Of a DNA stretch of 33,234 nucleotides, positions 27,001 to 30,000 are shown in pieces. The stretch is from a virus (lineage: Duplodnaviria; Heunggongvirae; Uroviricota; Caudoviricetes): positions 1-33,234 of the IMG/VR virus record IMGVR_UViG_2585427777_000018, one strand, 5' to 3'. The stretch's first letter is position 1, and each line of letters opens with the position of its first letter. The position numbers are program-made.

Positions 27001-30000
27001 GATTCATCAAAAATAATGCACTCATCAGAGACGGCATTAAGTGTACCGGTTCGCAGCTCTTTCGCCTTAGCCGGATATTTTGCGCAAATTTTGCCGTGCT
27101 CTGAGATATGCAGGCGCTGCACCGTACCTGAACGGAATGAGGTTGCCACCTGGATACTCGAGCCGTGCCCAAACAGGATATAGCCACCGCTGGCTCCGCT
27201 ACGACGTTCAACGATGGTGAATGAGGCTCTCAGCCAGTCAGGAAGATGATCAAACGGTACAGCAATTTTGGTGCGGAAAATTTCACTGGCAGCCTGTTTA
27301 TCCTGAGCGACAATCCCGCATTTGAGATGCGGTATGAATAATGCCTGGTCGAGAAGATAAATATCAATGGCCGTGGAAAACCCCAGCTGGCGTGCTTTCA
27401 GGATAATATTTTTATTGTGCATGCTCCGGAACAACTGGCGCTGCGCCGGTCGCATTCTGAAGGTGACCAGCTCACCTTTTTCGTTCTGTATCTTGTAGAG
27501 ATGATTGAGCCGCCACCAGGGATTGCTCAGTTTAGTCATGATGAACAGACGTTGTTCGGCCTCTGTCATTTCTGACGGTTCATCACATCGCGGTTCATTC
27601 TTCCGGAATGTCATCCAGTCTCCCCGAATTACTCATTTCATGCAGCGATGACACGATGTCACTGACAGGCGTAACAACGCCCCGACGCTGGCTGGTCAGA
27701 ATATCGGTTTCCGCTCTGAGTTTATCTCTGGCAGCGTTGGTTCTTTCCCGGTCAGCACGAAGTTTTGGTGCTGTTTCAGCCAGAACGTCCAGCGTCAGCA
27801 ATGAGCGTTCAATTGACTCGATACGGGCAATATTCCGGTCAAGAGCCTGTTCAGCTTTGAGTATTTTGTCGTACAGAGCAACGCGGGTTTCCACGTCAGC
27901 CGCCTCTTTCAGGTCGGCGAACATTTTTTTCAGTGTTCCTGTTACTGAAAGTGCGCGGGCCCGGGTAAACACCAGTTCATCGGCAAGTTCCATTCCGACT
28001 GCATCATCTATGAGGTTATCTGCCTCGAGATACTTCGCGTATCCACGGTGTCTGACGGCGTGGGTGTTACGCTGAGAAAAAGCATTTGAAGGTGGCAAAA
28101 GTCTGGAACCACGAGTCCGTTTCGTTTCTGCCAAATTTGCGCATTTTTCATCACAACCATCATCGCCTGAAGGCTCGTCATGACTGGAGTTGCCGTCAGA
28201 TTTCTGCGCACTTTTTTGATCATCAATTTGCGCATTTTTCTGCGCACTTTTCTCTGTATTTCTGGGGGAGTGTTTGCGCAGTTTAATGTACCGCCGAGCC
28301 GTGTCATAACTGATATTGTTCTGACGGCACCAGTCCTGAAGCTTTATGCCGGTTTTGACATGTTCGCGTCGAAATGCCTGCTCCAGCTTTTTCCAGTCCA
28401 GCTTTGCCATGTCACCTTCTGACGTTCTCTGTTAAAAACTGATGCACAATGACTGCTGTAAATTTTCAGATTTCACACAGCAGAGCCATGTCTGATTAAT
28501 GTTTAACCTTATTTAGGTTATATCCGCTTCATTCCACTACAGCACCAGATAGGCTGCCTCGCGGATAAATGCCAAAGTCTCCTGATATAGAAACCCGTCG
28601 CCACATCGAGCGCTGATCAACATTTGTATATTCACTGCGACAGAAAGAATTTATTTTATTGAATAGTTAGAAATACAGAATTGCATGCTTTATAAGCATT
28701 GACGCACACTTCATTTTTAGCAATATATTCTGTTCTCATAGACGATCAGCCCTGCATGCACTGCCGGACACCGTCGGCAATTTTACAGACCTAAGAGGCA
28801 ATACCAAAAAGCTAACGCGCTTTATCAAGACTTGAGCAACCAACCAATAAAAAAAGCACCAGTACCGCTACCAATGCCCATTTCGTCGTTGTTCACAGCA
28901 TTCTGTGTACCCACTGTATTTCGCGTCATATCACCACGTCAGACAATCCTTAAGGATTACATAAGATTTACGCATAATAATGCCCATTTTCAACACAGAC
29001 AAGGGAATTTATATGTTAAATCAAACGCTAACAAAATCTCTTCTTATATTTTTACTTGTCATAATCGTTTCTGTATCCATCATATACATTGTAAGAACTC
29101 CAGTCAGACTTGATGTGAACGATGTCACTGAGATTAACCAGAAACATCCCATTATTTTTCTCATCCGGCATGGGGAAAGATGCGATCGCTCCCAAAGAAT
29201 ATGTCTTTCAGCACATGAGGGAATCACAGTAAACGGAGCTAACAAAGCTCAACAATATGGAGATAAATTCAGAAGAATGTTTCCATACTACAGTCTCTAT
29301 TCTACAGACACACTCCGAACAATGCAGACAGCCACTTTTTTTTCGGGAGGTAAGACAGCAACTATTCCGGACATATCGACATGTGATGATAACGCAGTAA
29401 ATAATATCCTTAAAATATCAAAATCAGATCATGTTACTGTGATTTTCACACATAATCACTGTCTGTCCAGAATTGCAAAAAAAATGAATGGATGGAGATT
29501 TAAACCTGATTATATGGGCACACTGGTTCTGCATCGGGAAAATCACAATCTGATTCTCGACGGACATTTAAAACCAAACGAGCTTACCCAGTGATCCATT
29601 TGTTGATAATGCACTGGCATTGATTCAGGTTATATCTCTCCTCATAAAAAAGGCCAGCGATTGAGCTGGCTCTGTTAATCGAGGCATTGCATCCTGATGT
29701 ACTCCTGCAGGTAGTTAACCTGCTCGGTTATCTTGTCGATTCCACTTCGGAGACGGTAATAATTGAGTTCAGCATCTGCTGTAAGTCCTGAGCTTTCTCC
29801 ATCGCCCATGCCGCTGGCTCCGGTCGTTGACTTTGCACAGGTGGCGGCGACTTGCAGGCGCTTACGCCCAGCAGAAACATCAGCACGGAGACTTTCAATA
29901 GTCGCGTTAGCATCAGCAAGCTCCCTGGTGTATCTGGCATCGAGTGCAGCAACATCACGCTGGCGCTGCTGTATGTCAGCAATGGTGGCGTTCGCCTGGC

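Follow-up and report, generated by a model that had tools for sequence, protein, structure and literature searches.

An Ais/PmrG-family phosphatase gene with a predicted PmrA/BasR-type promoter at the bor position of an Escherichia coli O104:H4 prophage

Results

Phosphatase gene between Rz and terS

The stretch of DNA analysed here (the window; 33,234 nucleotides, IMG/VR record IMGVR_UViG_2585427777_000018) is 100% identical to a prophage in Escherichia coli O104:H4, e.g. that of strain C227-11 (NZ_CP011331.1). We describe one gene in it, which encodes a histidine phosphatase of the Ais/PmrG family, together with its predicted promoter (Table 1). As the strands and coordinates of the Rz-like spanin gene and of the small terminase subunit gene, terS, indicate, the phosphatase gene lies between these two and is antisense to them. 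The G+C content was 0.36–0.39 over positions 28850–29600 (0.375 for the gene), as against 0.50–0.55 in the flanking lysis and packaging genes, and the gene was preceded by a 602-bp upstream region of its own. The original prediction, made from the sequence of the window, had described an AT-rich, oppositely oriented gene with its own upstream region inserted between Rz and terS, and base composition, strands and coordinates bear this description out.

The open reading frame spans 28980–29594 on the plus strand with an in-frame ATG at 29013, and the RefSeq/PGAP coding sequence (WP_000934362.1, 193 amino acids) begins exactly at this ATG. We favoured it over a start at 28980 because the Shine-Dalgarno-like AAGGGA stands 6 nt before it. 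We rejected the longer version (204 amino acids) because a Shine-Dalgarno sequence is missing there, because position 28980 falls inside the predicted -10 hexamer, and because homologues, including all alleles found on mobile elements, begin at the Met aligned with ATG 29013.

Protein family, catalytic residues and fold

The protein matched the Pfam family His_Phos_1 (PF00300) with 28.9 bits against a cutoff of 21.7, aligned over residues 48–114 only, and passed the NCBIfam model NF011945 (PRK15416, the Ais subfamily) with 202 bits against a cutoff of 142. Its identity to Ais of E. coli K-12 was 43% (E = 7e-44). The RHG and FTHNHC motifs, on which membership of the Ais/PmrG family had been proposed, were located at R52-H53-G54 and F145-T146-H147-N148-H149-C150. 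In a family alignment of 46 sequences, R52, H53, R56, C57, D58, R59, S60, C64, G70, T72, Q105, V143, H147, C150, and Y167 were invariant, and E55, R102, T103, N148, and H149 were near-invariant. The protein thus carries the signatures RH[GA]ERCDRS and FTHNHC plus the conserved cysteines. R102 and H147 correspond, by analogy, to the second catalytic Arg and His. The original prediction had named a loss of the catalytic His or Arg as the finding that would overturn it; in the prophage protein, the catalytic His and Arg residues were intact.

The AlphaFold2 model (predicted local distance difference test score 91.4, predicted template modelling score 0.85) consists of a long helix, residues 2–27, followed by a compact α/β domain. 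All 50 PDB matches listed by Foldseek were histidine phosphatases (E values from 3e-7 to 1e-5), and the top ones included the MutT1 C-terminal domain, phosphoserine phosphatase, SixA, PhoE, and PGAM5. No PHROGs or PADLOC family matched the protein, so it belongs to none of the phage or defence families catalogued there. Taken together, sequence and model suggest that the gene very probably encodes an active phosphatase of the Ais/PmrG family, in agreement with the original assignment.

N-terminus and membrane topology

The N-terminus contains a hydrophobic run of about 19 residues, SLLIFLLVIIVSVSIIYIV, which closes with a conserved R-T-P and lacks an AXA-type cleavage motif. The hydrophobic region of chromosomal Ais is shorter and is followed by THA↓AWS. 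In the 46-sequence alignment, three cysteines were invariant and a fourth was mostly conserved; this conservation would suit a disulfide-bonded periplasmic protein. A secreted or anchored protein had been predicted, and an N-terminal hydrophobic export or anchor segment is indeed present. From this segment and the modelled helix we infer that the protein probably has an uncleaved N-terminal signal anchor in the inner membrane and a periplasmic catalytic domain.

Predicted PmrA/BasR promoter

A scan with the sigma-70 consensus found no plus-strand promoter between terS and the phosphatase gene, and no recognisable -35 element. In the place of a -35 element, 64 bp before the ATG, lies the direct repeat CTTAAG-GATTA-CATAAG, which resembles a PmrA/BasR box, and a putative -10 hexamer follows exactly 10 bp past it. 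A PmrA box consists of two hexamers, CTTAAG and NTTAAT (CTTAAT and CCTAAG in Klebsiella), 5 bp apart, and replaces the -35 element (PMC3973317; PMC10570014); PmrA contacts the TAA bases of the box (PMC10570014). The same arrangement was seen in three BasR-dependent K-12 promoters, namely arnB (CTTAAG-GTTAA-GTTAAT, 10 bp, TAAAAT), eptA (CTTAAG-GTTGG-CTTAAT, 10 bp, GAGCAT), and pmrR (CTTAAG-GTTCA-CTTAAT, 10 bp, CATACT), and the arnB promoters of Salmonella, Citrobacter, and other Escherichia species also have the box, the 10-bp distance, and the hexamer. The predicted promoter shares with the K-12 promoters the CTTAAG-N5-NTTAAK type of repeat at the -35 place but differs in its second half-site, CATAAG, which has A at position 2 and is nearer to CCTAAG of the Klebsiella pbgP promoter (PMC3973317).

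The composite pattern TTAAK-N7-TAAK-N11-ANNNT occurred as a single site in the window when both strands were searched (28950–28981, sense to the phosphatase gene), whereas 0.06 sites were expected from shuffled sequences. The module of box, 10-bp distance, and hexamer was present 64–71 bp before the start codon in nine of ten diverged alleles; in the exception, an insertion sequence (IS) element is inserted 68 bp upstream. All nine alleles whose upstream DNA is unbroken kept both cores (TTAA and TAA), the 10-bp distance, and the -10 hexamer; the 5-bp spacer and the sequence upstream of the box had diverged. The conserved cores take in the TAA bases that PmrA contacts. All alleles from IMG/VR for which upstream DNA was available retained the module. 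Upstream of remoter mobile homologues, i.e. traG of IncI1 plasmids and an allele beside a SPATE gene, no PmrA box was detected. In a Salmonella plasmid allele, an IS element stands where the PmrA-box part of the promoter was.

Synonymous divergence among the alleles is high (see below), yet the protein-contacted bases and the spacing are retained, which argues for constraint. The box pattern in its loose form is not enriched in the window, so our assignment relies on the composite architecture and on conservation across alleles. On these grounds, activation of the predicted promoter by PmrA/BasR seems likely.

Mobile clade, distribution and selection

Database searches yielded a graded series of homologues with 50–85% identity, mostly of about 193 amino acids; E. 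coli was the source of nearly all of them and Salmonella of a few. In every chromosomal context examined, the gene stood on the strand opposite to the lysis genes, right after them and before the terminase genes, and this same slot was occupied in lambdoid prophages with three endolysin types (lysozyme, M15 peptidase, and GH108). The plasmid alleles were flanked by IS elements and lay beside F4/K88 fimbrial genes, an AIDA-I autotransporter gene, or a CS1-type fimbrial operon; a more distant allele adjoins the gene of a SPATE (Peptidase_S6 autotransporter).

Among 185,579 species-representative genomes, nothing closer than 44% identity was found. The gene was carried by 21 of 2.9 million IMG/VR contigs, all of the mobile clade, and, by DNA and protein search, by one of 50,697 phage records, that of the Shiga toxin 1 (Stx1) phage GER2; of the 222 phage records that have a related terS, too, GER2 alone carried the gene. 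An allele of at least 99% identity was present in 43 of 5,426 complete E. coli genomes, and any allele detectable by blastn in 83. Pairwise ratios of nonsynonymous to synonymous substitution (dN/dS) among prophage and plasmid alleles were 0.13–0.34, the synonymous divergence (dS) between the main allele lineages was about 0.7–1 or saturated, and every allele compared stayed at 36–39% G+C. By these measures, the gene is an old passenger of mobile elements that is selectively maintained under purifying selection.

Some individual records deserve mention. The near-identical cassette of GER2 resides in an Stx1-converting phage. Its GenBank entry (MG710528.1) annotates a 273-nt, 90-amino-acid C-terminal fragment (extract positions 6923–7195), and tblastn recovered the full 193 codons at 99.5% identity; the annotation is probably truncated. 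A truncated prophage allele of the enterotoxigenic strain UMNF18 is called "transcriptional activator AfrS" in one source. Several prophages with Ais-like alleles also have the gene of an AraC-family regulator ahead of the holin genes, a combination that resembles AfrR/AfrS of the AF/R1 pilus operon (extract coordinates for these observations, 5001–5453 and 7479–8192, 8498–9349, and 8103–8831).

Cassette, flanking genes and host prophage

The gene order in phage 933W is terS (minus), bor (plus), Rz (minus), and blastn homology between the window and 933W ends at 28564 and restarts at 29838. From these breakpoints, a 1.27-kb cassette stands in for the 0.75-kb bor cassette of 933W, so that the earlier description of the gene as a moron at the bor position is literally correct. 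The cassette comprises the remnant of a lipoprotein gene, the promoter, the phosphatase gene, a hairpin, and the 3' end of a different Rz allele. The hairpin has a weak T tract on the plus strand and was scored as a terminator on the minus strand only.

At the nucleotide level, prophages in 23 E. coli genomes matched the lipoprotein-gene remnant with about 79% identity. Its homologue in strain SE11 reads MSRKHWTHRMPRTAAKWALVAILVPFLLVGC... and has the lipobox LLVGC, and in other lambdoid prophages this gene is located directly downstream of the endolysin gene. The remnant seems to have travelled together with the phosphatase cassette. Within it, a terminator-like hairpin with a T run (28854–28879, minus strand) is directed at terS, and this stretch is alignable in the E10 allele.

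Table 1 Features of the phosphatase locus (positions in the window; a dot denotes no strand).
Feature	Position	Strand	Basis or remark
Ais/PmrG-family histidine phosphatase gene, 193 amino acids	29013–29594	+	Open reading frame, RefSeq coding sequence, NF011945, His_Phos_1, identity to Ais, AlphaFold2/Foldseek, dN/dS
Phosphatase protein: hydrophobic N-terminal helix, residues ~2–27; catalytic domain, residues ~30–190			Helix read as a signal anchor
Predicted PmrA/BasR box, CTTAAG-GATTA-CATAAG	28949–28965	+	Direct repeat in -35 place; conservation; K-12 layout
Predicted -10 hexamer, AATAAT	28976–28981	+	Exactly 10 bp past the box; spacing as in arnB, eptA, pmrR
Shine-Dalgarno-like AAGGGA	29001–29006	+	6 nt ahead of ATG 29013; sequence
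Rz-like spanin gene, final gene of the lysis cassette	29675–30133	-	phrog_13 match, E = 6.5e-69; RefSeq
terS, small terminase subunit gene	27595–28410	-	phrog_370 match, E = 1.2e-117; RefSeq
Cassette in place of the 933W-type bor cassette	28565–29837	.	blastn breakpoints against 933W; 933W annotation
GC-rich hairpin between the convergent 3' ends of the phosphatase gene and Rz	29653–29670	.	Scored as intrinsic terminator on the minus strand
Frameshifted remnant of a gene for a lipobox protein of ~60 amino acids	28577–28937	-	Only broken open-reading-frame pieces left in the window

The prophage is of the 933W/Oslovirus type, with an N4-gp56-type capsid protein and a SASA/NanS-p-like esterase gene downstream of the antiterminator gene Q, and its terS is about 92% identical to the terS genes of Stx phages. 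The idea that it might be the Stx2 prophage of O104:H4 was rejected: there is no annotated stx gene between Q and the esterase gene. The gap between these two genes is 766 bp and lies beyond the end of the window at 33234 (extract coordinates 14402–15168). RefSeq annotates other envelope-related accessory genes in the prophage, all on the minus strand, namely those of a Cor exclusion lipoprotein (about 16437–16664), a frameshifted Ail/Lom family outer-membrane protein (about 11474–12210), and a Hok/Gef toxin (about 11099–11239).

Comparison with known systems

The chromosomal relatives, Ais of E. coli (b2252) and PmrG of Salmonella, share with the prophage protein the NF011945 match, the RHGERCDRS and FTHNHC motifs, the cysteines, a length of about 190–200 amino acids, and, by prediction for the prophage protein and its gene, export and linkage to PmrA boxes. 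They differ in location, as the chromosomal genes adjoin arnBCADTEF. Furthermore, Ais has a signal peptide with a cleavage motif in place of the long hydrophobic N-terminus ending in RTP, which is predicted to be an anchor, and its gene shares the divergent arnB box about 200 bp upstream, whereas the prophage gene has a predicted sense-strand box of its own.

The bor gene is a moron expressed in the lysogen and located between Rz and the packaging genes in lambda and 933W. The phosphatase gene has the identical slot and orientation, is likewise antisense to the late operon, and is likewise predicted to encode an envelope protein; Bor, however, is a small lipoprotein and not an enzyme, and no homology was found between the phosphatase cassette and the 933W bor region. 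Other conversion genes that modify lipopolysaccharide (LPS) are known in Shigella and Salmonella phages, e.g. gtrABC for O-antigen glucosylation and oac for O-acetylation. By our proposal, the phosphatase would resemble these in altering the LPS of the lysogen, but gtrABC and oac target the O-antigen and are usually located by the integrase gene and att site, whereas the target proposed here is inner-core phosphate, the location is the lysis-terminase junction, and control appears to be by a host two-component system.

A further mobile homologue is "TraG" of IncI1 plasmids, which is about 45% identical, similar in size, and has the RHGERCDRS motif; about 1,400 plasmid records matched the phosphatase protein, most at this level of identity. 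In contrast to the prophage gene, traG lies in sense orientation inside the tra operon, between traF and traH, has no detected PmrA box, and belongs to another clade. In an IncI-gamma/K1 plasmid (NZ_CP024230.1, extract 4878–5462), it comes immediately after pilV, the shufflon adhesin gene. The traG of pESBL from O104:H4 was dispensable for conjugative transfer in a transposon screen (PMC4288162). O104:H4 would then have three family members, on the chromosome (presumed), the prophage, and the plasmid.

Discussion

By summarizing the above results, we propose that the gene is a lysogenic-conversion moron whose product is an anchored Ais/PmrG-family phosphatase, controlled by PmrA/BasR and acting on the LPS core. 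We regard this as the best explanation and, as a whole, as more probable than not, with parts of unequal strength: that the gene is a moron expressed in the lysogen is highly probable, since its orientation antisense to the phage late operon points to expression in the lysogen and not in lytic growth. With its promoter lacking a -35 element and its DNA being AT-rich, the gene would be silent in the lysogen until a signal such as Fe3+, Al3+, or mild acid activates BasS/BasR (PmrB/PmrA). Phosphorylated BasR would then recruit RNA polymerase to the promoter, and the phosphatase would insert into the inner membrane, its catalytic domain facing the periplasm. There it may strip a phosphate off the heptose region of the inner core, on LPS that has just been flipped, and so make the surface less negatively charged. 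During lytic growth, late transcription would pass antisense through the gene. Candidate benefits are tolerance of the lysogen to metals or cationic peptides, or masking of LPS-core receptors.

Several observations weigh against this proposal, some on the side of the substrate and others on that of the promoter. The likeliest target is the phosphate on Hep(II), as for Salmonella PmrG, which dephosphorylates Hep(II) according to the account of Nishino et al. (2006) given in PMC8129183; for the prophage enzyme, we consider this assignment, made by analogy, an even call. The protein failed the PmrG equivalog model NF052369 (113.4 bits against a cutoff of 170), and its identity to Ais is only 43%; Hep(II)-phosphate is therefore an extrapolation and the substrate may differ. 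From sequence comparison it is a member of a paralogous clade of the Ais/PmrG family, inside the subfamily but not an equivalog. K-12 annotation calls Ais itself "putative", and we know of no biochemical data on E. coli Ais. No Ais/PmrG structure has been solved: a PDB sequence search gave no relative at E ≤ 1. The host presumably has a chromosomal ais already, and the polymyxin resistance of E. coli WD101 was the same after its chromosomal pmrG had been deleted (PMC8129183); a phenotype, if there is one, may thus be slight.

The equivalog score and the identity to Ais suit an alternative in which fold and location are as we propose but the substrate is another one, such as Hep(I)-phosphate or -diphosphoethanolamine, the 1-diphosphate that LpxT makes on lipid A, or a phosphate of another envelope glycolipid. 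The mobile clade would then have a role that chromosomal Ais does not cover. Its separateness, with a distinct N-terminus and no identity above 44% to anything in the species-representative genomes, speaks for this, and a second copy with identical activity seems redundant. Nevertheless, all family-invariant residues are common to the prophage protein and Ais/PmrG, no feature was found that points elsewhere, and a PmrA-type promoter suits an LPS-modification regulon. We therefore hold a different substrate to be possible but distinctly less probable than the proposed reading.

On the side of the promoter, the composite pattern was composed after the site had been seen, and the loose PmrA box showed no enrichment over the window (3 matches, with 1.9 expected; one site read on both strands accounts for two of the three). 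The second half-site deviates from the YTTAAK consensus, and the alleles are homologous, so that their shared module does not amount to independent observations. Chromosomal ais and pmrG, moreover, have no sense-strand box at a matching distance. An active phosphatase moron could accordingly lack PmrA control, the box-like repeat being inherited AT-rich sequence and the gene being constitutive, silenced by H-NS, or governed by another factor. Such a loose box arises in 3–9% of shuffled 120-bp upstream regions, and the literature searched offers nothing on PmrA regulation of a phage-borne Ais/PmrG. Against this, a dS of about 0.7–1 or beyond should have scrambled neutral upstream DNA, as it has the flanks and the spacer, yet TTAA, TAA, the 10-bp distance, and the -10 hexamer survive in all intact alleles, and the architecture without a -35 element is that of three BasR promoters of K-12. 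We thus favour PmrA/BasR control and rate its absence as unlikely, on a par with a different substrate.

It is improbable that the gene acts as an AfrS-like accessory factor promoting the expression of adhesins or surface structures, with no part in phage exclusion or in metal or peptide resistance. The AfrS label of the truncated UMNF18 allele, the alleles adjoining F4/K88 and CS1-type fimbrial operons, and the AraC-family genes in several prophages are in line with such a role. However, the product has a cysteine-rich periplasmic phosphatase fold, predicted to be membrane-anchored, with no DNA-binding domain, there is no AraC-family gene near the phosphatase gene in the prophage of the window, the label was not traceable to any paper in the literature searched, and a fimbrial effect, if any, would most simply arise through LPS modification. 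That the gene is a decaying, non-functional passenger carried along by lysis-cassette recombination, as the frameshifted lipoprotein gene beside it and the truncated UMNF18 allele might hint, is very improbable given an intact reading frame at least 99% identical in 43 complete genomes, the low dN/dS, and the retention of all catalytic residues.

A wider interpretation of our proposal, which we offer only tentatively, is that enterobacterial mobile elements own a lineage of anchored Ais-type phosphatases. The prophage and IS-plasmid alleles would be wired to PmrAB through the box promoter for signal-dependent editing of LPS-core charge, and the copies beside IncI1, fimbrial, and autotransporter genes would tune the LPS core for surface appendages, possibly with a substrate unlike that of Ais. 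If this is true, the gain of the phage would be receptor masking or fitness of the lysogen in the iron-rich or acidic gut.

The original interpretation, an Ais/PmrG-like phosphatase moron, is supported by this analysis in all that it said of the sequence, and the phenotypes it put forward, antimicrobial-peptide resistance and phage exclusion, stand as predictions; the PmrA/BasR-type promoter and the separate mobile-element clade were absent from it. The functional name of the gene had already been given by PGAP/RefSeq, and the annotation itself is not new. Our literature searches on phage-borne Ais/PmrG and on AfrS returned nothing relevant, and the mobile-element clade, the anchor-type N-terminus, and the dedicated, conserved PmrA-type promoter appear to be undescribed in the literature searched. 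The finding therefore owes its value to how the gene is regulated, to the topology of the protein, and to the fact that a mobile clade exists. If the proposal is true, the protein would be a tractable second member of the poorly characterised Ais/PmrG family, which has no solved structure, and the locus would clearly exemplify a phage moron that has joined a two-component regulon of its host. In the O104:H4 outbreak lineage, and in some Stx phages such as GER2, there would then be a gene that alters the charge of the LPS inner core only when BasSR senses Fe3+, Al3+, or acid, with possible effects on resistance to metals and cationic peptides and on how readily phages or conjugative pili that attach to the LPS core can infect or engage the cell.

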